Position numbers and translations under genes: made by a program | In this document: positions 1 to 17,227 of the stretch, piece by piece | Position numbering within the stretch: position 1 is the stretch's first letter | Layout of the letters: each line of letters starts with the position of its first letter | DNA from: Nitrososphaerota archaeon | Lineage (GTDB): Archaea > Thermoproteota > Nitrososphaeria > Nitrososphaerales > Gagatemarchaeaceae | Assembly: GCA_029785615.1 (NCBI GenBank) | Contig: JAFLZH010000004.1 | Coordinates: forward strand, 20,545 to 84,544 | Length of the DNA: 64,000 bases | Reading direction: 5' to 3' | The notes under the pieces: generated by a model | Databases searched by the model: none | What the model saw: the letters and a program-made list of their open reading frames with translations, nothing else | What the model was told of the DNA's origin: nothing

Positions 1-193
1 GGAAGATGGGTATCTTCTGGGGCCTGAAGTTGTCAGGGGTGGTCTTCCGGCCCAGGGTGACCACGTGTGGATGCTCGACCAGGACCAGGGAGTCGGGGAT
101 CTCCCCCCTGGCTCTCTTGGCGGCTAGCTCTCTCTGAAGCTCCAGAGCTTCGCCGTACTCCATGGTGCCGAAGTCGAAGAGGAAGCAGCTCAT
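1..193 (-). CDS. lipB: Octanoyl/lipoyl transferase LipB, N-terminal fragment running off the window edge
   Basis: Not in the ORF track. A minus-strand ATG at 193-191 overlaps the lpdA stop (ATGA). My translation, MSCFLFDFGTMEYGEALELQRELAAKRARGEIPDSLVLVEHPHVVTLGRKT..., fits the LipB N-terminal pattern (LxxEHPxVxTxG). Confidence 0.6.
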   Translation of the reverse strand, partial: MSCFLFDFGTMEYGEALELQRELAAKRARGEIPDSLVLVEHPHVVTLGRKTTPDNFRPQKIPIF

Positions 194-1593: not shown

Positions 1594-1642
1594 ACGGGGT
1601 CGCCGCTGTCTACGGGCTTAAACGTTGCTGGGAGGCGCCCTG

Positions 1643-2857: not shown

Positions 2858-2919
2858 GACAGATACGGGCGACCCGGTGGAGGGTTAAAAACTGTGCAGC
2901 CAGCTCGTGGGGAGCCTAT

Positions 2920-5070
2920 TCAGTAGCCGACCACGTCGAGGGCCGCCTTCATGACGCGTTCCTTGCTCGGGATATAGTTGTCCTCGAGCTTGGCCAGGGG
3001 TACGGGTATGTCGTAGCCGGTCACCCTCCTGACGGGCGCCTTCAGGTAGTCCAGGGCCCTCTCAGCCACGGTGGCCGCTACCTCCGCCCCTATCCCGACA
3101 TTGCGGGGCGCTTCGTGGACGACGACGAGCCTTCCGGTCTTCTGCACCGATCCCACCACGGTTTCGAAGTCGATGGGGGAGACGGTTCGCAGGTCGACCA
3201 CTTCGGCCGAGACAGACCTCTCGCTCTGAAGCGCCTCCGCCGCCTGTGCGGTGGGGACCATCATCGCGCCGTAGGAGACGAGCGTGACGTCGTTGCCCTG
3301 CCTTACCACACTTGCCTTGCCTATGGGGATGCGGTACTCCTCCTCAGGGACGTCGGCCTTGGGGGAGTCGTAGATCTTCTTGGGCTCCATGAACACCACC
3401 GGGTCCGGGTCGGTCAGGGCGGATGCGAGGAGGCCTTTGGCGTCATATGGGGTGGAGGGGACTACGACCTTCAGCCCCGGCGTGTGGGCGAAGTAGGCTT
3501 CGGGGGATTCAGAGTGGAGCTCTGGGGGTCGTATGCCTGCCCCATAGGGGAATCGGATGACACCCCTGAGTGCGAACCTCCCTCTGGTCCTGTTCCTCAT
3601 CCTGGCTATGTGACTGAAGATCTGGTCGAAGGCAGGGAAAGTGAAGCCGTCAAACTGGAACTCGGCCACGGGGACCATGCCGCCGATAGAGAGGCCCACG
3701 AATATGCCAGCTATGCTGAGCTCGGCCAGGGGGGTGTCGAAGACCCTGCTGGGGCCGAACTCGTCAAAAAGCCCGCGCGTCACCTGGAAGACGCCGCCGT
3801 TCTTTGCCACGTCCTCCCCGAATATCACCAGCCTGCTGTCGCGCCGCAGGCCCTCCCTGAGGGCCATGTTGACCGCGTTCCTGATGTTTATCCCCGGCTT
3901 CCCGCCGGTGGCCGACGGCTCGGGCGCCGAAGCCGCTGGGCCAGACTGTCCCCCAAGAAACTCGGCCTTCTCCATGGCGAGGACTGGGGTGAGTGAGGAG
4001 TAGGTGTAGTCGAATATCGCCTCCGGGTCCACGGGGGGGGTCGCCCTGTAGGCAGCTATCGCCTCGTTCATCTTGTCCTGGGCGGCGGCAGCGACAGCCT
4101 CCTTCGTCTTGTCGTCCAGCAGGCCGCGCGACCTCAGGTACTTCTCGAATCTGACGATGGGGCTCCTCCGCTCCCATTCAGCGACCTCATCCGGAGCCTT
4201 CAGCTTGTTGGAGACAAGCTCGGCGGTCGTGTGCGGGCCGAGCCTGTAGGTAGAGTACTCGATCAGGGTGGGTCCCCCGCCCCTCCTTGCCTTGTCGACC
4301 GCGTACTTGGTAGCCTCATAGGACGCGATGACGTCGTTGCCGTCGACGAGGATCCCTTCGAAGCCGTAGGCGACTGCCTTCTGGGCGATGGTCTTCGACG
4401 CCGTCTGGGCGCCCCTCCTGACGGAGAGGGCCCACTGGTTGTTCTCCACCCCGAATATGACTGGCAGGTCGTAGACCCCGGCTATGTTCATCGCTTCGTG
4501 GAAGTCCGCCTTGGAGGTGCCGCCGTCCCCGGTGACCACGAATACAACTGACTTCTCCCCCTGCAGGCGCTTCGCCATCGCGAGCCCCGCGGCGTGAGGG
4601 AGCTGGGTGGCAACTGGAACGGCCAGCGGGAGCATGTTCAGGTCCCCGGGCGTCTGCATCCCCCTCTCGTCCCCGCCCCAGTACTGCAGCAGCTTGACTG
4701 GGGGCATCCCGAAGGCCAGCATACCCGCGGAGTCTCTGTACATGGGGACGTACCAATCTCCCCGCTCCAGGGCGTTGACCGGCCCAATCTGCGCCGCCTC
4801 CTGCCCCTTGCCGGGCGCATAGGTCCCGATCTCCCTGAGGGTCGAGAGGTTGGTCGCCTTGTCGTCGAAGAGGCGGCCGAAAACAAGCTGCTCGTAGATC
4901 CGTTTCAGAGTATCCGGTGAGAGGTTTGGGTCCTTCCCGCGGATGCCTCCGTCGGGGGATAGCCTCTGAAAGAGAAACTCTTCGGGAGTGGCGAACTTGA
5001 AATCAGACTCGCTGAAGATTCGTGGTACCGCGTCGGTGCCAGACCTCTTCATGGAATCTTCTTCGGTCAA
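2920..5070 (-). CDS. Fused E1 alpha-beta subunit of a 2-oxoacid dehydrogenase
   Basis: 716 aa. The N-terminal half has the TPP-binding GDGGTSKADFHEAMN motif of E1-alpha. The C-terminal half is E1-beta-like (VIFGEDVAKNGGVFQVTRGL ... PVVFMEPKKIY). Confidence 0.9.
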   Translation of the reverse strand: MTEEDSMKRSGTDAVPRIFSESDFKFATPEEFLFQRLSPDGGIRGKDPNLSPDTLKRIYEQLVFGRLFDDKATNLSTLREIGTYAPGKGQEAAQIGPVNALERGDWYVPMYRDSAGMLAFGMPPVKLLQYWGGDERGMQTPGDLNMLPLAVPVATQLPHAAGLAMAKRLQGEKSVVFVVTGDGGTSKADFHEAMNIAGVYDLPVIFGVENNQWALSVRRGAQTASKTIAQKAVAYGFEGILVDGNDVIASYEATKYAVDKARRGGGPTLIEYSTYRLGPHTTAELVSNKLKAPDEVAEWERRSPIVRFEKYLRSRGLLDDKTKEAVAAAAQDKMNEAIAAYRATPPVDPEAIFDYTYSSLTPVLAMEKAEFLGGQSGPAASAPEPSATGGKPGINIRNAVNMALREGLRRDSRLVIFGEDVAKNGGVFQVTRGLFDEFGPSRVFDTPLAELSIAGIFVGLSIGGMVPVAEFQFDGFTFPAFDQIFSHIARMRNRTRGRFALRGVIRFPYGAGIRPPELHSESPEAYFAHTPGLKVVVPSTPYDAKGLLASALTDPDPVVFMEPKKIYDSPKADVPEEEYRIPIGKASVVRQGNDVTLVSYGAMMVPTAQAAEALQSERSVSAEVVDLRTVSPIDFETVVGSVQKTGRLVVVHEAPRNVGIGAEVAATVAERALDYLKAPVRRVTGYDIPVPLAKLEDNYIPSKERVMKAALDVVGY

Positions 5071-5993
5071 GGATTTTTTCTGATTCCGGCGCCCATATAA
5101 GATTGGTGGGCTCTACTGTTCCTTTGGATGGCCGTCCTGATGAAGAATTCCCCCGCGCGGTAGCTGCTTCTCACCAGCGGGCCCGAGGCGACGTACAAGA
5201 ACCCGAGTTCTTCACCCATGGCTCTGTATCGTCCGAAGTGTATGGGGTCGACGTAATCGGCCACTTTAAGGTGGCGCGCGGAAGGGCGGAGGTACTGTCC
5301 CACCGTGAGGAAGTCCACGTCCGCCTGCCTCAGGTGCGTCATCGCCTGGTATACCTCCTCCTCTGACTCCCCGAGGCCCACCATTATGGACGACTTGGTG
5401 TAGACGCCAGGGTCCAGCTTCTTCACGTTCCGCAGGACCGAGAGCGACTGCCAGTAGTTCGCCCGCGGGTCCCTCACCCTGTGGGTGAGAGAAATAGTGG
5501 TCTCGATGTTGTGGGCTATGACGTCGGGTCGCGCTTCGACGACAGCCCTCAGGCCGTCGAGGTCCCCCTGGAAGTCTGGGATCAGGACTTCGACGAGCAT
5601 CCCCGGGTTCTCCTCCTTCACGAGCTTGACCGTGCGGGCGATGTGGGAAGCCCCGCCGTCAGGCAGGTCGTCTCTGTCTACAGAGGTCAGCACTACGTAG
5701 GTCAGGCCCATCTGGGAAAGGGCGAATGCGACGTTCTCTGGCTCGAGCTCGTCCAGGACCCCCTGGGGCTTCCCCGGGGTGACCATGCAGAACCGGCATG
5801 CCCGCGAGCAGACGTCCCCCATCAGCATCAGGGTGGCCGTCCCGCCCCCCCAGCATTCGTGGACGTTCGGACAGTGGGCTTCCTCGCAGACCGTGTGCAG
5901 GTTCAAGCGGCCGAAGAGGGCCTTCAGGTCGTCGTAGTTCTCCCCGATGGGAGGTTTTACAGTGAGCCAACTTGGCTTGGGATCGGCTAGCAA
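5067..5993 (-). CDS. lipA: Lipoyl synthase (radical SAM)
   Basis: Auxiliary cluster motif CEEAHCPNVHECW and radical-SAM CSRACRFC. The 3' end overlaps the E1 start by 4 nt. Confidence 0.93.
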   Translation of the reverse strand: MLADPKPSWLTVKPPIGENYDDLKALFGRLNLHTVCEEAHCPNVHECWGGGTATLMLMGDVCSRACRFCMVTPGKPQGVLDELEPENVAFALSQMGLTYVVLTSVDRDDLPDGGASHIARTVKLVKEENPGMLVEVLIPDFQGDLDGLRAVVEARPDVIAHNIETTISLTHRVRDPRANYWQSLSVLRNVKKLDPGVYTKSSIMVGLGESEEEVYQAMTHLRQADVDFLTVGQYLRPSARHLKVADYVDPIHFGRYRAMGEELGFLYVASGPLVRSSYRAGEFFIRTAIQRNSRAHQSYMGAGIRKNP

Positions 5994-6607: not shown

Positions 6608-9475
6608 GTGCAAGGGCAGAACGTCTTCCAGTTCCTTTCGCCTCCCCTGCTCGCAGCCTTGAAGGAACGGGGATTCGACTCCCCCACCGACCCCCAGGCG
6701 AAGCTCCTCCCCATAGTGATGAAAGGAAAGAATGCGCTCCTCATGGCCCCGACGGGGACTGGGAAGACTGAAGCGGCCCTGCTTCCGATTCTTGACGCCA
6801 TCATCCGCGAGGGCGAGACGAGAGAGAAGGGGACGAAACTGTTGTACATCACCCCGCTCCGAGCTCTCAACAGGGACATGCTCGACAGGATGCAGTGGTG
6901 GTGCAAGCGCTTCGACATCAGGCTGGGAGTGAGGCACGGAGACAGTAGCCAGGCAGAGAGGACCAACCTGAGCCTGGCCCCGCCCGACATACTCATCACG
7001 ACGCCGGAGACCCTCCAGATCATGCTCGTGGGGAGGAGGATCAGGCAGAACCTGGCGAAGCTGAGGTGGGTGGTGGTGGACGAGGTGCACGAGCTCTCGG
7101 AGGACAAGAGAGGGAGCCAACTGAGCGTCGGGCTCGAGAGGCTGAGGGACGTGGCAGAGAAGGAGTTCCAGGTAGTCGGTCTGTCGGCCACCGTCGGCTC
7201 CCCGGAGAAGGTCGCTCAGTTCCTAGTGGGGAACGGGAGAGAATGCGAGGTGGTGCGCGTCCCGGTTGAGAAGAGCCTGTCGCTGAAGGTGGTGGCCCCC
7301 AGGGCGACGGGGGACGACAGGATCCTCGCCGATGCCATATACTCCTACCCCGAAGTCGCGGCCAGGCTCAGGACCGTCAGGGAGCTGGTGGAGAAATACA
7401 GGTCAGTCCTCATTTTCACGAACACGCGGTCGGAGGCCGAGGCGCTGTCGAGTCGATTCAGGGTGTGGGATCCAGGATTCGCCATAGCGGTCCACCACAG
7501 CTCGCTGTCCAAGGCGACCAGGGAAGCCGTCGAGAGGAGCCTCAAGGATGGGAAGCTGCTCGGAGTAATATGCACGAGCAGCCTCGAGCTCGGCATAGAC
7601 ATAGGGTTCCTTGAGTATGTGATTCAGTACAACTCCCCGAGGCAGGTGACCAGGCTGATTCAGAGGGTAGGACGCAGCGGGCACAGGGTGGGTGAGGTCT
7701 CCAATGGGCTGGTGATCACCCAGGACTCTGACGACACGCTGGAAGCCGCCGTGCTCTGCAGGAAGGCGGTGATGGGCGAGCTGGAACCCCTCGAGCCGAT
7801 CTTCAACCCCTACGACGTGGCCATACACCAGGTCGCCGGGCTGCTCATCGAGCAGGGGAACTGGAACTTCGACGACCTGGTGGCCTTCTTCAAGAGGAGC
7901 TATGCCTATGCGGAACTCGACGGGGAGAGGATGAAGAAGGTGCTCACCTACATGCGGGAGCGCTATCCCCGCCTGGCCTACTACAGTGAATCGGACGGGA
8001 AGGTCTTCCGCGCCAGGGACGTCAAGCCGCTGTTCCAGTACTACTTCGACAACCTCTCGATGATTCCGGACGAGAAGCAGTACCTGGTCATCGAAGGGGA
8101 CACGTTCGTCGGCACCTTGGACGAGGCGTTCGTGTCGGAGTACGGGGAGGTCGGTGTCAAGTTCGTGGAGGCGGGGAGGTGCTGGAAGGTAGAGCAGATC
8201 TACGGGAACAAGGTATACGTGAGGTCAGAGGATGATCCGACGGGTGCAGTCCCCCACTGGGTGGGAGATGAGATACCTGTCCCGATGGAGGTCGCGGCAG
8301 AGGTAGGGTCCGTACGAAGGAGGTACGCCGAGGAGTTGGAGAAGGGTGGAGAGGCTGAATACCTGGACGAGCTGGCCAGGACTTACCCGGCCTCCAAGGA
8401 CGCCCTCCAGGAATCCTTGAAGGAGGTCGCGGAGCAGCAGGCTGCGAAGCTCCCCATACCCTCAGAGAGGCTTGTGACCATCGAGAAGTGGGACAAGTAC
8501 CTGGTCATACAGGCGGCCTTCGGGCACAGGGTGAACAGGCTGCTGGCCAGGGTCCTCGGTCACCTCATTTCCGAACGGATAGGGCAGTCGGTAGCCGTCC
8601 ACCAGGACCCTTACCGGATTGTGATCGAGGCCGAGGTGACGCCCGCCGTCGTCCTTTCGGTGGTCGAGGAGCTCCACAAGCTCGACCTGAAGGCAGCGAC
8701 TGAGAAAGCCGTAGAGAGGAGCGGGATCTTCAAGCGGCGCCTCATCCACGCGGGCAAGAAGTGCGGCGCCATAGCCAAGGACGCAGACTACGCAAGTGTC
8801 TCCATCGCCGGGATCATCGAAGCCCTCAGGGACACCCCCGTCTACGAAGAGGCGATGAGCATGATTTTCCACGACGACTTCGACCTCTCGGCGGCTGCCG
8901 ACGTGATCGAGAAGATTAACGCAGGCGCGATTGACGTGAAGCTGGTAGAGTACGAGGGGCTCACCCCCATCGCCAGAATCGGGGTGGAGGAGATCAGCAG
9001 ACGTGGAGAGATAGTCTCACCAGAGCGGTTGAGGGCCCTCCTGAAGCAGTCGACCAGGGCAAGGGTCAACGAGACGTTCCTCGTGGCGGTCTGCACCAGC
9101 TGCTGGAACTTCCTGGAGCTTAGAAAGGTCGCAGACCTAGAGGGGCTCGAGAGCTGCCCCGCGTGCGGGAAGCCTAGGTTGGGGCTCTCGACCGACTCTT
9201 ATGAGAACGTCTTCTCGCTGGCCATGAAGGCCAGGAGCAGGGCGGCTCTTACCGGAGCCAAGCTGAAGGTGGTCGAGGCGCTCAGAAAGTCGTCGGAGCT
9301 GAGGAAGGAGTACGGTCACGCCGCTGACATGATCCTGGCCGGGAGGGGGATAAGGCTGGCAGAAGCTGCAGCGCTGGCCGCGAAGATGAGGAAGGAAGGG
9401 ACGGATGTCGTTGAACTCATCATCGAAGGAGAGAGGGAGGCGCTGCGCAGGCGCTACTTCTTCGCCGCTTCCTGA
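6608..9475 (+). CDS. Lhr-type superfamily-2 DNA helicase (paralog 1) with a C-terminal zinc ribbon
   Basis: Walker A APTGTGKTEAALLPIL, DEVH box VVVDEVHEL, SAT, QRVGRSGHR motif VI and a late CTSCWN...CPACG ribbon. About 950 aa, typical of archaeal Lhr. Confidence 0.85.
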   Translation: MQGQNVFQFLSPPLLAALKERGFDSPTDPQAKLLPIVMKGKNALLMAPTGTGKTEAALLPILDAIIREGETREKGTKLLYITPLRALNRDMLDRMQWWCKRFDIRLGVRHGDSSQAERTNLSLAPPDILITTPETLQIMLVGRRIRQNLAKLRWVVVDEVHELSEDKRGSQLSVGLERLRDVAEKEFQVVGLSATVGSPEKVAQFLVGNGRECEVVRVPVEKSLSLKVVAPRATGDDRILADAIYSYPEVAARLRTVRELVEKYRSVLIFTNTRSEAEALSSRFRVWDPGFAIAVHHSSLSKATREAVERSLKDGKLLGVICTSSLELGIDIGFLEYVIQYNSPRQVTRLIQRVGRSGHRVGEVSNGLVITQDSDDTLEAAVLCRKAVMGELEPLEPIFNPYDVAIHQVAGLLIEQGNWNFDDLVAFFKRSYAYAELDGERMKKVLTYMRERYPRLAYYSESDGKVFRARDVKPLFQYYFDNLSMIPDEKQYLVIEGDTFVGTLDEAFVSEYGEVGVKFVEAGRCWKVEQIYGNKVYVRSEDDPTGAVPHWVGDEIPVPMEVAAEVGSVRRRYAEELEKGGEAEYLDELARTYPASKDALQESLKEVAEQQAAKLPIPSERLVTIEKWDKYLVIQAAFGHRVNRLLARVLGHLISERIGQSVAVHQDPYRIVIEAEVTPAVVLSVVEELHKLDLKAATEKAVERSGIFKRRLIHAGKKCGAIAKDADYASVSIAGIIEALRDTPVYEEAMSMIFHDDFDLSAAADVIEKINAGAIDVKLVEYEGLTPIARIGVEEISRRGEIVSPERLRALLKQSTRARVNETFLVAVCTSCWNFLELRKVADLEGLESCPACGKPRLGLSTDSYENVFSLAMKARSRAALTGAKLKVVEALRKSSELRKEYGHAADMILAGRGIRLAEAAALAAKMRKEGTDVVELIIEGEREALRRRYFFAAS

Positions 9476-10017
9476 GCGCGCGACAGTATCAGCGTCATGA
9501 GAGTCTTCTCGTCCACCTCCGCTCTGGTCCTCCAGCCTATGTGCACCATGGTCCGTTCGTCCTGCTCTAGGTAGCCGCGCTTCACGTACCGGTCGAGCGA
9601 GTAGTCGATCCTCCACCTGGGGAACTTCTCCCTGAGGAACTGCTCGACCTCGCGCCTGGCGACACGGCCGGTCTTGGAGTTGACGAAGGCGATGGTTGCC
9701 GCGAGGACAGCCAGGTCGTCTATCCTGATGCCCGACGTTTCCGCCTCCGTGACGGTAGGAGGCTCCTTGAACCTCAGGAGGAAGCGGGATGAATCGTCGG
9801 TCCCGTCGACGCCCTTCACCTCGAACACCTCGAGGCCCATGGGTGCGACGTCTTCTGAGAGGACTCCGATGATCTTGCGGTAGTCCCTCCCCAGGTACCG
9901 CTTCATCTCCCACCCCTTGACGCCGGGGTTACGCCCACGCTGGAGGACTAAGACCTGGAAGGCCCGCCTGACCTTCCTCTCCAGAAGCGCCCTGTCAGCG
10001 GTGTCCGACTCCATCAA
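9454..10017 (-). CDS. KITE-family tandem winged-helix protein (ScpB / Nse3-MAGE-like), SMC-kleisin partner
   Basis: 187 aa with two WH-like halves: VLVLQRGRNPGVKGWEMKRYL...GLEVFEVKG...RFLLRF and LAVLAATIAFVNSKTGRVARREVEQFL...YVKRGYLEQD...IGWRTRAEV. The start overlaps the stop of the kleisin-like gene by 4 nt. Confidence 0.6.
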   Translation of the reverse strand: MMESDTADRALLERKVRRAFQVLVLQRGRNPGVKGWEMKRYLGRDYRKIIGVLSEDVAPMGLEVFEVKGVDGTDDSSRFLLRFKEPPTVTEAETSGIRIDDLAVLAATIAFVNSKTGRVARREVEQFLREKFPRWRIDYSLDRYVKRGYLEQDERTMVHIGWRTRAEVDEKTLMTLILSRAQEAAKK

Positions 10018-10772
10018 TTCTCACCCGTTATCGATATCGCGACAGACTTCGGAGTCCCCTTCGTCTTCTCGGCCAGGGCCATGGTCCAGATTCTTCCCGT
10101 GAGAGGCTCGGTCTTCAGGAGGGCCCTCCCTTCGCTGATGAGGAACGCGAGGAGGTATGCCCTCCTGACCTTCATCTCGAAGCTTTCGACCCCGATGAAC
10201 TGGCGGTAGTCGACCCAGTCTCCGTTGGACTCCCTCAGGAGCTCTTCGTACAACTGGGTCAGTTCGACCTCGAACTCCTCCCTGGTGAAGACGCCGGTGC
10301 TGACCAGGTCGGCGTAATCGACCGTCCCCGGCCTGACTCCGTAGTTCCCGAACTGGTCTTTGAACCTCTCAGAGAGCGGGATTAGCTCGCGCCAGTAGAC
10401 GAAGGCCTTCTCCAGCCCCCTGGGAGACAGCTGGTCCACCTGGGCTATCGGGTGCCAGCTCCTGACGAACGCCTCGGTGAGGGCTTCCTTGGAGAGGAGC
10501 TTCACCTTGAGCTGGATGAGAAGAGGGTCGATGAAGAGAGCCGAAGCTCTCGACTTCAGCCACTGGTCCTGAAGCTTCACTATCTGCGCCAGCTCGAGCA
10601 TCGCCTCCGAGTCCACCAACAGTTCGTCCAGGAGCTTGAGCTCCGGGAGCCTCTGCTTCAACAGCAGTATCTTCTCCCTTATGTCCACGTCGAAGGGGTT
10701 CGCGCTGCTGGTCTCGACGTCGCGGCATAGCTCTATCACCCTGAGGTAGTCGTCGAGCTTGGTCTGTTCCAA
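10014..10772 (-). CDS. Kleisin-like protein (ScpA / Nse4-like)
   Basis: 252 aa. N-terminal helical segment (NPFDVDIREKILLLKQRL...EAMLELAQIVKLQDQWLKSRASAL) and a C-terminal WH-like segment (VRRAYLLAFLISEGRALLKTEPLTGRIW) resemble ScpA termini. It lies 4 nt downstream of the SMC-like gene. Confidence 0.6.
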   Translation of the reverse strand: MEQTKLDDYLRVIELCRDVETSSANPFDVDIREKILLLKQRLPELKLLDELLVDSEAMLELAQIVKLQDQWLKSRASALFIDPLLIQLKVKLLSKEALTEAFVRSWHPIAQVDQLSPRGLEKAFVYWRELIPLSERFKDQFGNYGVRPGTVDYADLVSTGVFTREEFEVELTQLYEELLRESNGDWVDYRQFIGVESFEMKVRRAYLLAFLISEGRALLKTEPLTGRIWTMALAEKTKGTPKSVAISITGEN

Positions 10773-10776
10773 GAAG

Positions 10777-12783
10777 TTACTTCAGCTCCTTGACCTCGGA
10801 CGAGCCGTGGACCGCCTGGACCGTGATGACGTGGGCGCTCCTGTCGAACACCGTCAGTATCGACGGGGTGATTACGATGTATTGTGAGGCCTCCCTCTGC
10901 TTCATCTGCGACAGAATCATCTTGAACATCGCTTCCCTGTTCTTGGGGTCCATATGTATGTCGAACTCGTCCATCGCCCTCAGGGGGGAGACTATCCTCG
11001 CCTGGAGGGACAGGATGAAAGCCATCAGGGCCACCGACCGCTCCCCGCCGCTCTGGGTGAACGGATCGAGGGTGGTGGGGGCGCCCCCCCTGAACCCGAC
11101 GTATAGGTCGAGGCCGGCGTCTTCGATGGTGTCAGCCTGCTCGAACTTTATGAAGCCGCTGGCGTCCGTTGCGGACAGGACCGCCTGATAGGATGGATCC
11201 ACAGTTTCAACCAGATCTTCCATGGCTTTCCTCCAGATGCCCTTACGCGAGTCCAGCTCCGAGAGCATGGACTTCTTGTTCTCCTGGAGCATTGCGAGCT
11301 TCGCCTTCAGCTCTTCGATGTTGCCAGAGTAGTCGTTGTAGATTTTCTCCGCGTCGTCGGGCACGTCCTGCATCTTTTGGATGTGGGCGGACACAAGCTT
11401 CAGCTCCTCTGAGACTTCATAGGGCTGGCGCGCTGTCTCCATCCTGCCCCCCGCCCTTTCGAGGTCCGGAGCCAGTTTGTCCAGCTCCGCTTTGTACTCT
11501 CTAGCAGTCCTCTCGAGGTCGTGGAGGTCAGACTCCGTCACTCTGATGCGGTACGAGAGTACCTCAGCCTTGACTTTGAAGGACACGTAGCTGTCGGTAG
11601 CGCGCCTGATGAGGTCCTCGGTCTTGGTGATGTCAGGCTGCAGGGAAGAGACTTCTCTGTCCAGCTCCGTCTTGCGGCGCTGGGCATCCTCTTCGGCCGA
11701 TAGGCTCTTTTGCTCGATGTACGCGGCGAGCTCCTTGAGCCTCTTCGCGCTCCTGTCCCCCCCTTTTGACAGGAGCTCGTCAATCGTGGTTGACAGCCCT
11801 GAGAGGTCGTCCTTTATCGACCGGTAGGCGTCGCGAGCCGACTCGTCCTTCGCCTTCTCCGACTCCGCCCGCACGAGGGCATAGTAGAGCTTGCGCAGTT
11901 CCACCTGCTTGTCCAGGAGCGTCTGGTGGGTCTGCTCGGCGTCGGAAGAGACCTCGGTCTGCTGCGACTTCAGGTCTTCAAGGGCCTTCGTCTTCGAAGC
12001 AATCTTCTCCTCGGCGCCCTGTAGTGCCTTGCTGAGCTTGTTCTCAGTGCTCCACAGAAGCTCCTTGGTCAGGAGGTCTCTGTGTTCGATTTGCCTCCGC
12101 TTCTCCTGGTAGCGGTCGTACACCTGCTTCCAGTATTCGAGGGCCTGGTTGGCGTTGTCTATGAGTTGGAGGAGGGAGCTCTCCTCTCCCACCAGTCCGC
12201 CCAGCTCCTGCTCGGCCAACGTGATCCTCTGCCTGTACTCGGAGAACCCGACCGCCTCTTCGACCATCCTCAGGCGCTCCTGGGGGGTGACGGCGCCCAG
12301 CTCCTCTATCATCCCCTGGTGCATGATGATGAGCAGGTTGTCTGGGTTGATGCCGAACTCGCTGAGGAGCCTCACGACCTCGCTCTTGTCTATCTCCTTG
12401 TAGTCCGCCTCGAACCAGTACGAACCGTCGCGCCTCAGGTACCTGCTGAGCATGAAGGTGTCCGACTTCGAGTAGGGAATCGGCCTCCGCCCCGCCTTCT
12501 GGGAGTTGTCGAAGATGAGAGAAACCCGGGCGATGTCTTTACCGCGCCTGATGAGGTCTGAGAGCTTCCTTGACCTTTCGGTGTACGCCTGCCCGAACGC
12601 TACGGAAATGGCGAGGAGGACCGAGGACTTGCCGGCCCCGTTGGGACCGACTACCAGGTTCAAGCCCTCGCGGAGGGGTATCCGGGCATACTCGTAACTC
12701 ATGAAATTCTCCAGGATGATCTCCTTTACTGTGGTAAGATGAGACGGCCTCTCCTGGGAGACCTCTCTGACGCCTCGGGACAA
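10777..12783 (-). CDS. Short SMC-family ATPase with Smc5/Smc6-like head motifs, no hinge and no zinc hook
   Basis: N-head ILENFMSY...LNLVVGPNGAGKSSVLLAI; C-head signature QSGGERSVALMAFILSLQARIVSPLRAMDEFDIHMDPKNRE...QYIVITPSIL. About 350 aa of heptad-like coiled coil lies between the heads. The protein is 668 aa with zero cysteines. Confidence 0.8.
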   Translation of the reverse strand: MSRGVREVSQERPSHLTTVKEIILENFMSYEYARIPLREGLNLVVGPNGAGKSSVLLAISVAFGQAYTERSRKLSDLIRRGKDIARVSLIFDNSQKAGRRPIPYSKSDTFMLSRYLRRDGSYWFEADYKEIDKSEVVRLLSEFGINPDNLLIIMHQGMIEELGAVTPQERLRMVEEAVGFSEYRQRITLAEQELGGLVGEESSLLQLIDNANQALEYWKQVYDRYQEKRRQIEHRDLLTKELLWSTENKLSKALQGAEEKIASKTKALEDLKSQQTEVSSDAEQTHQTLLDKQVELRKLYYALVRAESEKAKDESARDAYRSIKDDLSGLSTTIDELLSKGGDRSAKRLKELAAYIEQKSLSAEEDAQRRKTELDREVSSLQPDITKTEDLIRRATDSYVSFKVKAEVLSYRIRVTESDLHDLERTAREYKAELDKLAPDLERAGGRMETARQPYEVSEELKLVSAHIQKMQDVPDDAEKIYNDYSGNIEELKAKLAMLQENKKSMLSELDSRKGIWRKAMEDLVETVDPSYQAVLSATDASGFIKFEQADTIEDAGLDLYVGFRGGAPTTLDPFTQSGGERSVALMAFILSLQARIVSPLRAMDEFDIHMDPKNREAMFKMILSQMKQREASQYIVITPSILTVFDRSAHVITVQAVHGSSEVKELK

Positions 12784-12900
12784 GCTTCGAGCCTGCGCGG
12801 GCCCCGGGCGCTTTTAGACATTGCCCCCCGGGAGGCCGGAATACAGTTTCACCGACCCCTCTCTCGTGACACCTTAAATCGGGTGGCGGTCCTCTCACCG

Positions 12901-15747
12901 TTGTTGTCTGCTCGGACCGCGTTCGAAGCTCTCGCTCCAGCCGTGAGGGGGTTCCTGGCAGACACGGGGATGGTTGAGCCCACGCCCCCCCAGATCGAGG
13001 CATGGCCCCTCGTCTCTCGAGGGGGAGACGTCCTCGTGGTAGCCCCCACAGGTTCCGGGAAGACCGAAGCCGCAATGCTTCCGCTGCTGAGCAGGCTGTT
13101 GTCTGAAGGTCACGGGGACGGGATTTCGCTGCTGTACATCACCCCCATGCGAGCCCTGAACCGCGACATGCTGAAGCGGTTACAAGCCTGGTGCGCCAGG
13201 CTAGGGCTCACGGTCGACGTCAGGCATGGGGACACCCCCCAGTCCCAGAGGTCGAAGCAGTCGACGCACCCCCCTGACGTCTTGGTAACCACCCCGGAGA
13301 CATTGCAGGCGATACTCCCGGGCCGGAGGATGAGGGACAACTTGTCGCACCTGAAGGCAGTGGTAGTGGATGAGCTCCACAACCTGGTAGAGAGCAAGCG
13401 AGGGGTGCAGCTCTGCGTAGGGCTGGAGCGGCTCCGGAAGGTGGCTCCCGACTTCCAGCTGGTCGCGCTCTCCGCCACCGTCGGGACTCCAGCGGTGGCG
13501 GCCAAATTCCTCTTCGGAAACCGGAGCGTTAAGATCGTGAAGGCTGATGCGCCCAAGGAATTCGCCTTCGCCATCGAGTACCCGGTCCCCGACCCAGCGA
13601 GCCAGTCAGCCGCCAAGGAGACATACTCGGCGCCCGACCTGGCGGCCAGGCTCACCCGGATCAACGCCCTGATCGACGGCCACACTTCGACCCTCATCTT
13701 CGTCAACAGCAGGACCCTCGCCGAGATGCTTGGAGAGAAGCTGGCCAGGCTCAGGAAGGACGTCGGGGTCCATCACGGGTCGCTGCCCAGGGAGGAGCGA
13801 GAGCGGGTGGAGCAGGCGTTCAAGGCCGGAGAGCTGAAGGCTCTGGTCTGCACCAGCACCCTGGAGCTGGGCATCGATGTGGGGTCTGTGGACCTGGTGG
13901 TCCAGTACATGTCACCAAGGCAGGTCACAAGCCTCGTGCAGCGCGTCGGCAGGAGCGGCCACAGGCTCGGGAGGGTCTCCAAGGGCGTCCTCGTCACGGT
14001 CTCGGCGGATGACATCATGGAGTCCACCGCCAGCATCCGCTCGGCCGCCCAGAAGAGGATCGAGCCCACCAGGCCATACTCGAACTCCCTGGACGTGCTT
14101 GCCCACCAGGTCGCAGGGTACCTCATGGACTTCGAGACGATGGAGGCAAGTAGGATGCTGGCGGAGGTGAGGAAAGCAGCCCCGTTCGAGGGCCTCCAAG
14201 ACGACGCATTCCTCAGAACCGTGGGCTATCTCGCAGAGCTCCGGAAGCTCAGATTCGACGGCACGACGCTGTCCAGGACCAGACTGACTAGGGAGTACTA
14301 CTACGAGAACCTGTCGATGATCCCCGACGAGACCAGATACCTTGTCGTGGACGTGTCCACCAACCAGACCGTGGGCATACTGGGCGAGGAGTTCGTCCTT
14401 CTGAAGGCGAAGGTCGGCATACACTTCGTGATCAAGGGGCGGGTGTGGCAGGTGGAACAGATAGCCGAGGACAGGAAGATCTATGTGACCCCCGTTGAAG
14501 ACCCGCTCGCCGCCGTCCCCGGGTGGGACGGCGAGATGCTGCCGATTCCATACGAGCTCGCCGTGGAGACCGGCAGCCTGAGAAGGGAGGTCTCAGACGC
14601 GCTGGACGCGGGTCAAGACGCGGTCGAGAGGGTCGAGGGGCACATCCCCGGGGACACGGCTGCGCGGGCCCTCGTTGTGGACCAGATCGCCGAGCAGAAG
14701 AAGATGGGAGCGTCGGTCCCATCGGATAGGCTGGTCCTCTTCGAAGGTTTCGGCCGGTACCTGATCGTCCATCTCTGCTTCGGGGAGTCGGTCAACAGGA
14801 CGTTCGCCTATGTGTTCGAAGAGATCCTGTCTAGGCGGGGACTGGTGAGAGTCTGGTGGCTCGACGGATACAGGCTTCTGATGGAGCTCACCACGGAGAC
14901 TGGGGAGCTGGACCTTGAGGCGATTGCCACGGAGCTGATGCGCCTGACCCCCGAGGAGCTCGAGAGGACCTATGCGGTCGCCGCCCAGAGGAACTTCCCC
15001 TTCCCTGCTCGAGTGAAGTTCGTGGCCGAGAGGTTCGGAGCGCTGAAGCGGGGCAAATTGATTGCCCACCCCAACCTCTGCTCCCTCCCTACCCGCTTCG
15101 AAAAGACCCCCATCTTCGAGGAGGCCCTGCAGGAGACCGGGAGGGACCTGATTGACATGGGTCACTCGAAGGAGATTCTCATGGCGGTGGCCGGCGGCAA
15201 GATAGCGGTTGAGACCTTCCAAGCGGGTGAGAGGCCCACCCCCATCGCCTACAGTCTCCTCTATCGGTACCTCGAGGTTCCCGAGGCCGTTGCCCCCGAC
15301 TCACTGGGGAAGTCGTCCTACCAGAGGCTGAAGGCGACCATATTCGGGACCGAGGTGAGCCTCCTTTGCGTGAAGTGTGGCTCGGACCAAGGCCAGACCA
15401 CAGTGGGCGAAGTTCCTGAGGAGCCCCGGTGCGGAAGCTGCGGGTCAGGGCTCCTGGCTCCATGTTACTGTGGGACGGCCAAGCTCTCCGAACTGATCAA
15501 GAAGAGAGAGGCCAGGACCCAGCTGAACGAAGAGGAGCGCTCTGAGCTTTCGCGGGCCAGGCGGGGGGCCGACCTGGTCCTGTCGTACGGAAGGAAGGCG
15601 GTCGTCGCCCAGACCGTCTATGGCATCGGCCCGCAGACCGCGTCCAGGATCCTAGCCGAGATGCATGATGACGAGGAGGCGTTCTACAGGGACCTGCTCG
15701 AAGCTAAGATTCGGTTCGTCACGACCAGGCAGTACTGGGGGAGCTGA
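12901..15747 (+). CDS. Lhr-type superfamily-2 DNA helicase (paralog 2) with a C-terminal zinc ribbon
   Basis: APTGSGKTEAAMLPLL, VVVDELHNL, SAT, QRVGRSGHR and CVKCG...CGSCG. The frame is open from 12739, but that would overlap the divergent SMC-like gene. An in-frame TTG at 12901 lies about 24 nt after a TTAAAT box (12875-12880). The start is uncertain. Confidence 0.8.
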   Translation: MLSARTAFEALAPAVRGFLADTGMVEPTPPQIEAWPLVSRGGDVLVVAPTGSGKTEAAMLPLLSRLLSEGHGDGISLLYITPMRALNRDMLKRLQAWCARLGLTVDVRHGDTPQSQRSKQSTHPPDVLVTTPETLQAILPGRRMRDNLSHLKAVVVDELHNLVESKRGVQLCVGLERLRKVAPDFQLVALSATVGTPAVAAKFLFGNRSVKIVKADAPKEFAFAIEYPVPDPASQSAAKETYSAPDLAARLTRINALIDGHTSTLIFVNSRTLAEMLGEKLARLRKDVGVHHGSLPREERERVEQAFKAGELKALVCTSTLELGIDVGSVDLVVQYMSPRQVTSLVQRVGRSGHRLGRVSKGVLVTVSADDIMESTASIRSAAQKRIEPTRPYSNSLDVLAHQVAGYLMDFETMEASRMLAEVRKAAPFEGLQDDAFLRTVGYLAELRKLRFDGTTLSRTRLTREYYYENLSMIPDETRYLVVDVSTNQTVGILGEEFVLLKAKVGIHFVIKGRVWQVEQIAEDRKIYVTPVEDPLAAVPGWDGEMLPIPYELAVETGSLRREVSDALDAGQDAVERVEGHIPGDTAARALVVDQIAEQKKMGASVPSDRLVLFEGFGRYLIVHLCFGESVNRTFAYVFEEILSRRGLVRVWWLDGYRLLMELTTETGELDLEAIATELMRLTPEELERTYAVAAQRNFPFPARVKFVAERFGALKRGKLIAHPNLCSLPTRFEKTPIFEEALQETGRDLIDMGHSKEILMAVAGGKIAVETFQAGERPTPIAYSLLYRYLEVPEAVAPDSLGKSSYQRLKATIFGTEVSLLCVKCGSDQGQTTVGEVPEEPRCGSCGSGLLAPCYCGTAKLSELIKKREARTQLNEEERSELSRARRGADLVLSYGRKAVVAQTVYGIGPQTASRILAEMHDDEEAFYRDLLEAKIRFVTTRQYWGS

Positions 15748-15783: not shown

Positions 15784-16467
15784 TTGGTGCTAGCAGGCAA
15801 GGTCTTCCTCGTGAGGGAGAACTACGAGATCGACACCCTCGCGGAGAAGTTGAAGTCGTTCAGGATAGAGACGGAGACGAGCGTAGAGGGGAAGGAGTTC
15901 AAGCTCGTGTCAGAGATAACAGACCTGGGGGTCGGCAAGGGGTCACTCGAGGGGAAGTTCTCATTTGACTCCGTCTTCGTGGTCCCCCACAGGGGCGAGT
16001 CGGTCCCGGTCCCCAGGACCTATGAAGCGCCTTTCTCCTTCGGAATGTACAAGGATAGGATGTTCCTCACTGTCTACGACAAGAAAAACCGAGCTAACAA
16101 CATAGCGAACGAGATGAGCAAGGCGGTGTTCATGAGCCTTGGTCAGGTGGTCGAGGCCAGGATCGACCCGGAGACCTTACGGAAGTTCCATGAGGCGAAC
16201 TTCGACGACACCAAGGTGATATTCTATTCGGACGTCGACCTGCCTAACATCACCAAGCTGTCCCTCTATGGCGCTGAACTGGGCAACACGAGCCTCTACA
16301 CCGACTACCTTACTCATGGGAAGCTGTGGTACATCGTCTTCAAGAGCAGGGAGTACGGCTACGTGTTCGGGCTCACGAGGAACTGCATCCTGACGGGGTT
16401 CAGCAAGATGGAGCTGTCGGAGTTCAAGAACTTCGTGGGGAGCCAGGTCCTCCCGCTGATAGCGTAG
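15784..16467 (+). CDS. Hypothetical protein with no recognisable motif, wedged between Lhr paralog 2 and the MPE phosphoesterase
   Basis: 227-aa ORF with genome-typical GC3-rich codons. It starts 36 nt after the helicase stop and ends 1 nt before the next gene. Confidence 0.55.
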   Translation: MVLAGKVFLVRENYEIDTLAEKLKSFRIETETSVEGKEFKLVSEITDLGVGKGSLEGKFSFDSVFVVPHRGESVPVPRTYEAPFSFGMYKDRMFLTVYDKKNRANNIANEMSKAVFMSLGQVVEARIDPETLRKFHEANFDDTKVIFYSDVDLPNITKLSLYGAELGNTSLYTDYLTHGKLWYIVFKSREYGYVFGLTRNCILTGFSKMELSEFKNFVGSQVLPLIA

Positions 16468-16468
16468 C

Positions 16469-17227
16469 TTGCTGAAGATAGTCCCCGGAGAAGCCGCGCT
16501 AGTGTTCTCTACGGCCGAGAGCAAGACCCTGCTGATATCCGACCTGCACCTCGGCCTGGAGAAGGAGATGGCGAAGAAAGGCTTCCGCCTACCCGCCTAC
16601 TCGGTGAGGATGGTTGAGAGGGTGAAGCGGGCTGCTGAGGAGTATTCGACAACAAGGCTGGTCGTGTTGGGAGACGTCAAGCACACGGTCGGCAAGGTGG
16701 AGGACATAGACTGGGGGGCGGTCCCGTGGTTCTTCGACACCATGCTGGACCTCTTCGAGGTCGTGGAGGTCGTCCCGGGGAACCACGACGGGAACATCAA
16801 GACGGTCCTCCCCCCGCGCGTGAAACTGGACAGGTCTCAGGGGACCACCTTGGGCGAGGGGCGGAAGCAGATCGGGGTTGCCCACGGGCATGCCTGGCCC
16901 TCGGAGGAAGCCATTGCGACGAGGAACCTCGTCATAGGCCACTCCCACTTCACCTACGAGATGCGTGACGGCATGGGCGCCAGGACGAGGGAGTCGGTGT
17001 GGGTGACCGCTGACTACGACGTCGCCAAGCTGATGGAGGGGGCAGGGTACCCCTCCAAGCTCCGGGGGAAGGGTAGGCTGACGGTGATGCCCCCCTTCAA
17101 CAGGCTGGTCGGCGGACAGCCTATCAACAGGAGCAGGTCGTTCGAGTTCGGGCCCGTCCTATCCTCGAGGTCGATAAGCCTCGAAGAGGCAGACATATTC
17201 CTGACAGATGGGACCAGGGTGACCTAG
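16469..17227 (+). CDS. Calcineurin-like metallophosphoesterase (MPE/PdeM-like, Lhr-associated type)
   Basis: Metal-ligand motifs ISDLHLG, VVLGDVKH, VPGNHDG, VAHGHAWP and VIGHSHF. Confidence 0.8.
   Translation: MLKIVPGEAALVFSTAESKTLLISDLHLGLEKEMAKKGFRLPAYSVRMVERVKRAAEEYSTTRLVVLGDVKHTVGKVEDIDWGAVPWFFDTMLDLFEVVEVVPGNHDGNIKTVLPPRVKLDRSQGTTLGEGRKQIGVAHGHAWPSEEAIATRNLVIGHSHFTYEMRDGMGARTRESVWVTADYDVAKLMEGAGYPSKLRGKGRLTVMPPFNRLVGGQPINRSRSFEFGPVLSSRSISLEEADIFLTDGTRVT

Follow-up and report, generated by a model that had tools for sequence, protein, structure and literature searches.

Whether they invoke topological entrapment, segment capture or loop extrusion, models of how SMCs work assign essential roles to the coiled-coil arms and the hinge. 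The question of whether an SMC-kleisin complex can function with an open apex has to date been addressed chiefly with engineered proteins. The 64,000-nucleotide stretch of archaeal DNA analysed here (the window) carries a gene that a sequence-only reading had described as a miniature SMC lacking a hinge domain, and the locus poses the question of whether a cellular SMC complex can dispense with a closed apex. Because the hinge has been lost and the protein is nevertheless strongly conserved, in an operon with a kleisin and a kite subunit, it offers a natural test of whether the hinge is needed.

Table 1 Features of the SMC-kleisin-kite locus, in order of position in the window.
Feature	Position (nt)	Strand	Basis
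Lhr-type helicase, convergent with the kite gene	6608..9475	+	Pfam DEAD, Helicase_C, WH_Lhr, DEAD_assoc; NCBIfam PRK13767, TIGR04121
Putative kite subunit, 187 aa, tandem winged helix	9454..10017	-	AF2, Foldseek, profile, synteny
Kleisin, 252 aa, ScpA-like N-terminal domain and Nse4-like C-terminal winged helix	10014..10772	-	profile against PDB, Pfam, synteny
Short hingeless SMC ATPase of the Smc5/6 type	10777..12783	-	ORF, Pfam SMC_N, PDB matches, head tree, selection
C-terminal half of SMC head, residues 528-668	10780..11202	-	motifs, PDB matches, dN/dS
Walker B/D-loop MDEFDIHMD	10948-10974	-	motif position
Signature QSGGERS	11035-11055	-	motif position
C-terminal arm helices, residues 344-527	11203..11754	-	AF2, alignment
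Break in C-terminal arm helix, residues 445-459, G-x-R-x-E-T-x-R	11407-11451	-	AF2, alignment
Apex turn KGGD, residues 340-343, at the usual site of hinge or zinc hook	11755..11766	-	AF2, alignment, dN/dS
N-terminal arm helix, residues 181-339	11767..12243	-	AF2 helix 180-339, alignment
N-terminal half of SMC head, residues 19-180	12244..12729	-	motifs, conservation, dN/dS
Walker A GPNGAGKSS	12622-12648	-	motif position
Second Lhr-type helicase, divergent from the SMC gene	12739..15747	+	Pfam, NCBIfam

Affinity of the ATPase heads

The SMC gene starts with TTG and encodes 668 residues, confirming the size of about half the canonical value given in the earlier reading. All ATPase motifs are intact and the split ABC-type head is complete. 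The head motifs named beforehand all lie at the expected residues, with ENFMSY at residue 25, Walker A at 46, the Q-loop (MHQG) at 154, the signature at 577, the Walker B/D-loop (MDEFD) at 604 and QYIVITP at 634. Pfam SMC_N matches residues 19-641 with 123.8 bits (cut-off 40), and Walker A and the signature are 531 residues apart, against about 900 in full-size SMCs.

In HMMER comparisons with the PDB, Smc5 (1e-29) and Smc6 (3.5e-22) rank above prokaryotic Smc (6e-19), followed by Smc2/3/1, Rad50 (1e-9) and RecF. Among 1.8 billion representatives, eukaryotic Smc5 likewise provides the next best matches after the protein's own archaeal family. Two derived motifs are shared: the D-loop DEFD[VI]H[ML]D (DEFDVFMD in Smc6) and ITP in place of the H-loop histidine. 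A neighbour-joining distance tree of 330 head columns, with no outgroup from Rad50, RecN or MukB, splits the archaeal SMC and eukaryotic Smc5/6 from canonical bacterial and archaeal SMCs in 200/200 bootstraps. Ranking, derived motifs and tree bear out the proposal that the heads are nearer to Smc5 and Smc6 than to bacterial Smc or Rad50, and these sequence comparisons support their assignment to the Smc5/6 type. The NCBIfam model SMC_prok_A gives 171.7 bits (cut-off 729), and models of Rad50, RecN and SbcC score 22-66 bits against 172 for the SMC model; the protein does not group with these families, which the earlier reading had named as the outcome that would count against it. Individually, Rad50 (43-66 bits against cut-offs of 700-1087), ASRP (43.8 against 300) and RecN (21.7 against 408) are rejected as identities, and RecF and arcadin-4 are ruled out on score.

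The long archaeal relatives P0414 and P0449 branch nearest to eukaryotic Smc5/6 in the head tree; long relatives measure 982-1047 aa. The middle of P0414 has no hinge match in the PDB or Pfam, and we refer to it as a globular middle region rather than a hinge. Bathyarchaeota relatives with a mid-arm CxxC nest among the short forms. Their CxxC segment has no zinc-hook match in the PDB and is called zinc-hook-like here by position and motif only; its presence in nested relatives hints that apex dimerisation matters in this clade.

A hairpin in place of the hinge

AF2 models the region between the head halves as a helix (residues 180-339), a turn (340-343), a second helix (344-444), a break (445-459) and further helices (460-527). 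The input alignment was shallow (87-100% identity) and left the heads with a pLDDT below 50, so the arm part alone was used (pLDDT 70-93). In this model the chain runs out along one helix and, after the four-residue turn KGGD, back along another, forming an antiparallel coiled coil with N- and C-terminal arm helices of matched lengths and arms of about 23 nm. The long antiparallel coiled coil of SMC proteins is present at about half the canonical length, and its helical residues, about 330-345 in number, agree with the roughly 350 estimated earlier; the short break SKGGDRS, also picked out then, begins at residue 339 and holds the modelled turn. Foldseek with the middle region retrieves antiparallel coiled-coil hairpins, namely the Smc5/6 arms (8wjo), Rad50, the MukB elbow and Smc arm fragments.

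The 668-aa protein has no Pfam SMC_hinge match and no CxxC zinc hook, and the alignment of short relatives contains no conserved tip motif. Together with the modelled turn and the short distance from Walker A to the signature, this shows that a plain coiled-coil hairpin is all that remains of the distal arms and of the domain that dimerises SMCs at the apex, as the earlier account of a protein without hinge or hook had it. Its remark on the absence of cysteines is accurate (0 counted), but the feature is not special in itself, as relatives have 0-4. The break at residues 445-459, which that account had missed, is a second, conserved discontinuity of the arm.

Close relatives of 668 aa (87-100% identical) make up more than 100 clusters at 90% identity among the matches listed, with frame and length intact in many independent assemblies, and full-length short relatives of 548-685 aa form more than 50 clusters at 50% identity, in Nitrososphaerota, Bathyarchaeia and Thermofilales. 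A genome scan with the full-length family alignment matched the universal Walker A pattern, mostly in canonical bacterial Smc, and yielded two true relatives only (L001 and L002); metagenomes were scanned for related loci with an alignment of the C-terminal part only. The whole gene is under strong purifying selection, with dN/dS values of 0.027 and 0.033 in the N- and C-terminal head halves and 0.07-0.08 in the arms. Residues 326-362 at the apex are the least constrained part (0.23), and as this value is still below 1 the tip may have some function. Conservation in the family alignment is 0.56-0.79 in the N-terminal head half and 0.11-0.19 in residues 301-390, where 37-60% of positions are gaps. 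Across 42 short relatives, the apex is precisely where indels occur and conservation is lowest, and the heads and proximal arms, where the kleisin neck site and the joint would lie, are conserved. W218 and W244 in the head-proximal part of the N-terminal arm helix are invariant, as is W517 in the C-terminal arm, and the path between W218 and W517 is 197-330 residues long across the family.

Kleisin and kite partners

The operon runs from the SMC gene to an Nse4-like kleisin and then to an Nse1/Nse3-like kite gene. In 74 related loci the kleisin gene comes after the SMC gene, and the full order recurs in 66, including those of Thermofilales and a low-GC Thaumarchaeote. Neither partner from the window is matched by Pfam or NCBIfam, even at E<=10, and a shallow kleisin profile found no match in the PDB; kleisin and kite matches appeared there only once distant orthologues were added to the profiles. 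The kleisin profile then matches yeast Nse4 (E=0.0042), human NSE4B/EID3 (0.0075) and the N- and C-domains of ScpA (0.012-0.033 and 0.07-0.11), and 7/18 orthologues match Pfam Nse4_C, every score lying below the gathering cut-off.

For the third protein, AF2 gives a tandem winged-helix topology (pLDDT 65). Kites account for 8 of the 9 best Foldseek matches (MAGE-G1/NSE1 5hvq_C, Nse1 7dg2_A, JetB, ScpB and MAGE-A3), with a probability of 0.97 for 5hvq_C and 7dg2_A and weak scores overall (E about 0.02, TM 0.3-0.44). The sole kite-family match of its sequence profile in the PDB is Nse3/MAGE 7dg2_C, also weak (E 0.2-0.6). It is the specificity of these weak matches that marks the protein as a probable kite; having no cysteine, it lacks a RING. 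No genes for further Smc5/6 subunits adjoin the operon, either in the window or at any of the 66 related loci. Profile matches and gene order identify the 668-aa protein as the SMC subunit of an archaeal Smc5/6-related SMC-kleisin-kite complex.

Genomic neighbourhood

The convergent Lhr-type helicase gene overlaps the 3' end of the kite gene by 22 nt. A convergent Lhr gene is found at 36/42 related loci with enough flanking sequence, and also at the Thermofilales locus L001; it is missing in the most distant tier (L153-L160). As most of the Lhr-linked loci are close relatives, they are not independent. The second, divergent Lhr gene is present at 29/42 loci with enough upstream flank, in close relatives only. 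The Lhr genes and a PdeM-like gene nearby form a repair-type context. Other neighbours of the locus are housekeeping genes (2-oxoacid dehydrogenase, enolase and Nramp).

A proposed DNA clamp and its alternatives

We think it rather probable that the reduced complex acts as an ATP-gated DNA clamp or sensor, probably in DNA repair. Two SMC subunits would engage their heads around two ATP molecules, a single kleisin would link one SMC at its neck to the other at its cap, and a kite dimer would sit on the kleisin. The DNA would lie within the kleisin compartment, clamped on top of the engaged heads much as in DNA-clamped eukaryotic Smc5/6. With neither hinge nor hook, the arms would not be covalently closed at the top, and the complex would then work as a clamp or sensor and not by ring-like entrapment of loops between long arms. 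That the convergent Lhr helicase is conserved points to a role in repairing DNA or at replication forks that have stalled, and a separate canonical Smc-ScpAB would organise the chromosome alongside. We advance more tentatively, and regard as somewhat doubtful, the wider claim that a widespread natural SMC-kleisin-kite machine works without any apical dimerisation and that a globular middle domain, a zinc-hook-like CxxC and a bare hairpin have freely replaced one another at the apex in this Smc5/6-type clade. If true, at least one conserved SMC function in the cell, the ATP-gated clamping of DNA in repair, would need neither hinge nor hook.

The arms might instead form a closed ring or rod, their hairpin tips or whole lengths pairing non-covalently in a cryptic mode, like the coiled-coil tips of RecN or the hook-proximal coiled coils of Rad50, to organise or extrude DNA with arms of about 23 nm. 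To our knowledge, the other kleisin-binding SMCs are all dimerised at the apex (compare PMC4989898), and this universality speaks for closure, as do the zinc-hook-like CxxC at the same place in Bathyarchaeota relatives and the selection on arms and apex alike. However, the apex is the most variable and gap-richest part of the protein, the arm path varies greatly in length, and the tip has neither a conserved motif nor a cysteine; we consider closure unlikely, though likelier than the other alternatives. The short size also bears on the possibility that the protein is what truncation or decay has left of a full-length SMC, either a pseudogene or an assembly artefact, particularly as long relatives exist. 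Intact frame and conserved length in close and divergent clusters alike, dN/dS values of 0.03-0.08 and arm helices of matched length in the AF2 model all stand against decay; conservation and selection effectively refute a pseudogene, the other outcome named as fatal in the earlier reading, and we give a remnant practically no chance.

Lamassu systems typically include an SMC-like ATPase that is short and hingeless, which raises the thought of an immune module that restricts extrachromosomal DNA in the manner of Wadjet or Lamassu, or of eukaryotic Smc5/6 acting against viral episomes, with the short SMC as sensor of foreign DNA and the Lhr-type helicases as effectors. In PADLOC the SMC weakly matches mad3 (98 bits, confined to the N-terminal head), LmuB over the full length (62 bits) and JetC (41 bits), the latter two generic, and the flanking helicases match its BrxHI, SngC and DpdJ models strongly. 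The SMC nevertheless reaches a higher score against Smc5/6 (107 bits), PADLOC matches neither kleisin nor kite, and the operon contains no nuclease effector. Its housekeeping neighbours, and synteny across metagenomic loci combined with very low dN/dS, are unlike patchy defence islands. On partners and genomic context we reject membership of a defence system, and a restriction role of this kind seems very improbable. Our preferred reading remains the ATP-gated clamp.

Comparison with known systems

The natural protein can be set beside engineered mini-Smc and hinge-to-zinc-hook swaps of Bacillus subtilis Smc (PMC5344682). These share the shortened arms and the replaced apex and reportedly still work with kleisin and kite. 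The engineered constructs are reported to retain an apical dimerisation module, whereas no such module is detectable in the archaeal SMC.

Like Rad50 and the archaeal ASRP/ClsN proteins, the SMC combines a split ABC head with an antiparallel coiled coil and no globular hinge, and some close Bathyarchaeota relatives have the mid-arm CxxC. It differs in lacking a CxxC itself, in family scores far below the cut-offs and in having kleisin and kite as partners, not Mre11; it is not a member of the Rad50/ASRP (ClsN, Sph) group. RecN and Lamassu LmuB resemble it in overall size and short coiled-coil hairpin, LmuB aligning weakly over its full length, but its heads are of the Smc5/6 type, a kleisin and a kite are present and the context is housekeeping. 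With generic scores and no system or nuclease partners, it belongs neither with LmuB nor with Wadjet JetC.

The eukaryotic Smc5/Smc6-Nse1/3/4 core (PDB 7TVE, 7QCD, 7DG2) provides the best head sequence matches, the DEFDxxMD D-loop and ITP motifs, the Nse4-like C-terminal kleisin domain and the MAGE/Nse1-like kite fold. In contrast to this heterodimer, the archaeal complex is presumably a homodimer, because there is a single SMC gene. Its operon has one kite gene and no RING, no Nse2 or Nse5/6 adjoins it, and the SMC lacks a hinge and has arms of roughly half the length; with a single SMC and a single 187-aa cysteine-free kite, it does not amount to the eukaryotic holocomplex. Eukaryotic Smc5/6 and canonical SMCs are all hinged, and P0414 and P0449 lie nearest to eukaryotic Smc5/6, so the miniature form most likely arose by secondary reduction and is not ancestral. 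Being probably derived, it adds little on Smc5/6 origins and by itself leaves the published picture unchanged. Of the relevance to this origin that the sequence-only reading had proposed, the kinship of the heads stands, but the link was already published.

The locus does supply a natural minimal Smc5/6-type system, in which an SMC of 548-685 aa and kleisin and kite subunits of about 250 and about 190 aa, respectively, presumably make up a homodimeric complex, whose small size suits structural work and biochemistry. Sister forms with a zinc-hook-like motif or a larger middle domain offer a built-in comparison, and the recurrent Lhr linkage suggests what an archaeal forerunner of Smc5/6 does.

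An archaeal "SMC5/6-related" SMC-kleisin-kite operon has been published (Yoshinaga & Inagaki 2021, PMC8665677, and 2022, PMC9389158; van Hooff et al., bioRxiv 10.1101/2024.01.07.573240). Our operon shares its head clade, its three-gene logic and its phyla (TACK, including Thaumarchaeota and Bathyarchaeota). The portions of these three reports available to us describe a general SMC architecture with a hinge, in contrast to the 23-nm arms and four-residue turn found here, and make no mention of short or hingeless members. A literature search turned up no relevant account of archaeal Smc5/6-like proteins that are short or hingeless. The hingeless short-arm form is one for which we found no prior description, within a known operon type. 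Canonical Smc-ScpAB co-exists with such operons: smc, scpA and scpB are encoded in 14/14 RefSeq Thaumarchaeota examined (PMC7055376), and on a single contig a canonical Smc-ScpA-ScpB operon lies 3 kb from a short Smc5/6-like operon.

A short SMC without a hinge

The SMC of the window has the split head of its class, matching Pfam SMC_N over residues 19-641 (123.8 bits; cut-off 40 bits), and matches no Pfam hinge model. The top NCBIfam model is the archaeal-type SMC TIGR02169 at 171.7 bits, far under its full-length cut-off of 729; weaker scores go to Rad50 (43-66 bits), ASRP (43.8), arcadin-4 (38.9) and RecN (21.7). A sequence-only reading of this DNA had quoted a set of head and arm motifs and claimed that the protein contains no cysteine; every motif was located at its place and the cysteine count is zero.

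Features of the SMC locus (window positions) and motifs of the SMC (residue numbers)
Feature	Position	Strand	Details
2-oxoacid dehydrogenase E3	190-1593	minus	
2-oxoacid dehydrogenase E2	1643-2857	minus	
Fused E1 alpha/beta	2920-5070	minus	
Lipoyl synthase	5067-5993	minus	
Lhr-type helicase, downstream	6608-9475	plus	convergent with kite gene, tail-to-tail overlap 22 nt
Kite gene	9454-10017	minus (SMC strand)	187 aa, abuts/overlaps preceding gene
Kleisin gene	10014-10772	minus (SMC strand)	252 aa, abuts/overlaps preceding gene
SMC ORF	10777-12783	minus	TTG start, 668 aa
SMC arm break	11407-11451	minus	residues 445-459
Second Lhr-type helicase, upstream	12739-15747	plus	divergent from SMC gene
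Phosphoesterase, PdeM/SbcD-like	16469-17227	plus	TIGR00024 82 bits, TIGR04123 58 bits, both sub-cut-off
Repeat ORF	53077-60501	minus	2474 aa
ENFMSY	25		
Walker A GPNGAGKSS	46		
Q-loop MHQG	154		
SKGGDRS	339		
Signature QSGGERS	577		
Walker B/D-loop MDEFDIHMD	604		
QYIVITP	634		

AlphaFold2, given a shallow alignment of 23 sequences all at least 87% identical, left the heads unfolded (pLDDT <50) and modelled the arms at pLDDT 70-93 as a helix (180-339), a four-residue turn (KGGD, 340-343), a second helix (344-444), a break (445-459) and further helices (460-527). Foldseek matches to this model are antiparallel two-helix hairpins from Smc5/6 arm regions (8wjo), Rad50, the MukB elbow, Smc arm fragments and chemoreceptors. 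By model and matches together, the protein is a head followed by an arm of ~160 residues per strand (~23 nm) that ends in a bare turn. The distance from Walker A to signature is 531 residues, compared to ~900 in full-size SMCs, so that a hinge cannot fit. The proposed lack of a hinge is thus borne out by domain models, predicted turn and motif spacing alike. The conserved break in the C-terminal arm helix bears a motif shared across the family, G-[PS]-R-x-E-T-x-R, which reads GGRMETAR in this protein; the break may be the joint, or a site that binds DNA or a partner.

Affinity to Smc5/6

Against all PDB sequences, the protein ranks Smc5 (1.1e-29) before Smc6 (3.5e-22) and prokaryotic Smc (6e-19), followed by Smc2/3/1 (~1e-16), Rad50 (1e-9) and RecF (~1e-3). 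In a representative library, the first matches outside the archaeal family are eukaryotic Smc5 proteins from Tieghemostelium and Edaphochlamys, with all canonical SMCs ranking below. The family D-loop, DEFD[VI]H[ML]D, is of the Smc6 type (DEFDVFMD), and ITP is shared with Smc5/6 at the H-loop position where canonical SMCs have histidine.

Our head tree is a neighbour-joining distance tree (330 head columns, 47 sequences) of the query, 22 short forms, three long Bathyarchaeota and two other long archaeal proteins, six Smc5, two Smc6 and 11 canonical SMCs, including that of Nitrosopumilus. It separates Smc5/6-type from canonical heads in 200/200 bootstraps, unites Smc5 and Smc6 in 196/200 and groups the long archaeal protein P0449 with them in 145/200. 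The Smc5/6-like character first seen in the head motifs is therefore upheld by PDB order, D-loop and ITP motifs and this split, in a tree without Rad50, RecN and MukB outgroups. The tree agrees with published maximum-likelihood and Bayesian trees (PMC8665677; PMC9389158), in which an "SMC5/6-related" clade of archaeal proteins is defined for TACK archaea, Thaumarchaeota and Bathyarchaeota among them.

A widespread family under selection

Proteins of 668 aa that are 87-100% identical to the query form >100 clusters among the matches listed in a 90%-identity database, from Nitrososphaerota MAGs; some carry the JGI label "structural maintenance of chromosomes protein 5". We found >50 clusters of full-length short relatives (548-685 aa, 32-45% identity), with 429-563 residues between Walker A and signature, in a set of 1.84 billion representatives at 50% identity. 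Named sources are Nitrososphaeria, Bathyarchaeia, Thermofilales and one MAG labelled Halobacteria. When 42 short forms are aligned, head conservation is 0.56-0.79. Compared codon by codon to 29 relatives, the window gene has a dN/dS of 0.03 for heads, 0.07-0.08 for arms and 0.23 for the apex. These ratios are approximate because dS is almost saturated; they show strong purifying selection on the gene. The breadth of the family, its conserved heads and these low ratios exclude a truncated pseudogene of a longer SMC, which the sequence-only reading had named as a possible refutation.

The apex differs among relatives. The nearest long relatives, P0371, P0383 (both from Bathyarchaeota) and P0388, measure 1016-1047 aa with 52-54% head identity to the query, and in the head tree are nested among the short forms (with the related P0364 in 197/200 bootstraps). 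All three have KPQI[RK]CDKCGS at mid-arm, with a zinc-hook-like CxxC at residues 542, 531 and 522 in P0371, P0383 and P0388, respectively; such a motif stands here in an SMC type otherwise paired with a kleisin. In another long form (P0414, 982 aa), ~170 residues of the middle region are not coiled and seem to be globular. Sequence searches of PDB and Pfam gave no confirming match for the putative CxxC hook or this middle region. Hinges are present in canonical SMCs and eukaryotic Smc5/6 alike, so parsimony makes the bare hairpin a secondary reduction.

Kleisin and likely kite partners

Searched singly, the two proteins encoded downstream of the SMC have no Pfam or NCBIfam match. The order of short SMC, a 236-289-aa protein and a 186-207-aa protein recurs in a Thermofilales MAG (L001) and a low-GC Thaumarchaeote (L002); across these and 80 scanned metagenomic loci, 74 have SMC and second gene and 66 all three. 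A profile of diverse kleisin orthologues matches the C-terminal domain of yeast Nse4 (E=0.0042) and human NSE4B/EID3 (0.0075) in the PDB, ahead of ScpA (N-domain 0.012-0.033, C-domain 0.07-0.11), and seven of 18 orthologues match Pfam Nse4_C (best E=2.5e-4, under the gathering score). The top-ranked profile match, the designed repeat protein 7obi_A (2.8e-5), has no aligned stretch over threshold and is taken to be an artefact.

The model of the 187-aa protein has two winged-helix domains (pLDDT 65, pTM 0.54). Eight of its nine top Foldseek matches among 350,542 chains are kite proteins: MAGE-G1/NSE1 (5hvq_C) and Nse1 (7dg2_A), both with probability 0.97, JetB, ScpB from three species and MAGE-A3. 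The sole kite-family match of its sequence profile in the PDB is Xenopus Nse3/MAGE (7dg2_C, E 0.2-0.6). Each score is weak alone; because the matches are kite-specific and the operon position fits, the protein is likely a kite. It has no cysteine and hence no RING. The operon matches the content published for archaeal SMC5/6-related operons: SMC, Nse4-related kleisin and Nse1/3-like kite (bioRxiv 10.1101/2024.01.07.573240).

Coexistence with canonical Smc-ScpAB

Metagenome contig Ga0180923_148 (L156, 1-9791) directly shows both SMC complexes in one genome. Canonical Smc-ScpA-ScpB lies ~3 kb upstream, on the same strand, of a short operon with Smc5/6-like SMC, kleisin matching Nse4_C and kite. 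Of the canonical Smc, the contig has the C-terminal 650 aa, whose match to TIGR02169 (407 bits) takes in the hinge part; ScpA (PF02616, PF04824) and ScpB (PF04079, 114.7 bits) accompany it. The Nitrosopumilus chromosome (L036) encodes a canonical SMC of 1179 aa, and smc, scpA and scpB occur in all 14 RefSeq Thaumarchaeota surveyed by Jeon et al. (PMC7055376). Given these canonical sets, the short complex is most likely an additional machine rather than the sole cellular SMC.

Flanking Lhr helicases and proposed mechanism

Two paralogous Lhr-type helicases flank the operon. The convergent, overlapping copy is shared by L001; of 42 related loci with sufficient flank, 36 have it, and it is absent from L144 and the most divergent tier (L153-L160). 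The divergent copy occurs in 29 of 42. With the present gene calls, the upstream Lhr ORF and the start of the SMC gene share 45 nt; one of the two true start codons therefore probably lies further in. Downstream of the second Lhr, 15784-17227 (plus strand) holds an unannotated 227-aa ORF and the phosphoesterase, an arrangement of Lhr and phosphoesterase similar to bacterial Lhr-PdeM ligase-associated damage-response clusters. PADLOC gives the SMC only generic head matches (mad3, 98 bits, N-terminal head alone; LmuB, 62 bits) and none for kleisin and kite.

The protein keeps its ATPase motifs intact, residues of the neck and joint region are conserved, and kleisin and kite genes are present; the head-module model of an Smc5/6-type complex is therefore the most economical. 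ATP would bring two SMC heads into engagement, with the kleisin spanning neck and cap and the kites docked on the kleisin, and the engaged heads would hold DNA clamped on them. Arms without apical closure would be unable to make a sealed SMC compartment, and for this reason we consider an ATP-gated clamp or sensor more likely than a loop extruder; it would act together with Lhr, in repair or at stalled forks.

The strongest competing reading is cryptic dimerisation via tips or arms. Across the 42 short forms, the apex (query residues 301-390) has the lowest conservation (0.11-0.19) and carries the indels (gaps 37-60%), so the arm tip does not appear to be a conserved interface. Conservation is moderate in the proximal arms (0.4-0.5), where W218, W244 and W517 are invariant, and the path from W218 to W517 varies from 197 to 330 residues.

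The system type and its tie to Smc5/6 are already known. For the hingeless short-arm form, its breadth, its apex diversity and the Lhr link, we found no description in the searchable part of the literature, and an earlier one may exist elsewhere.

Other genes of the window

Genes around the operon are housekeeping genes. The minus strand carries a complete 2-oxoacid dehydrogenase set at 190-5993, which fits a heterotrophic, high-GC (~61%) Nitrososphaerota lineage. The 2474-aa ORF, a probable giant surface protein, consists of Ig-like, PKD and SprB repeats, and GC skew in its region is strongly positive on the plus strand (0.18-0.23).
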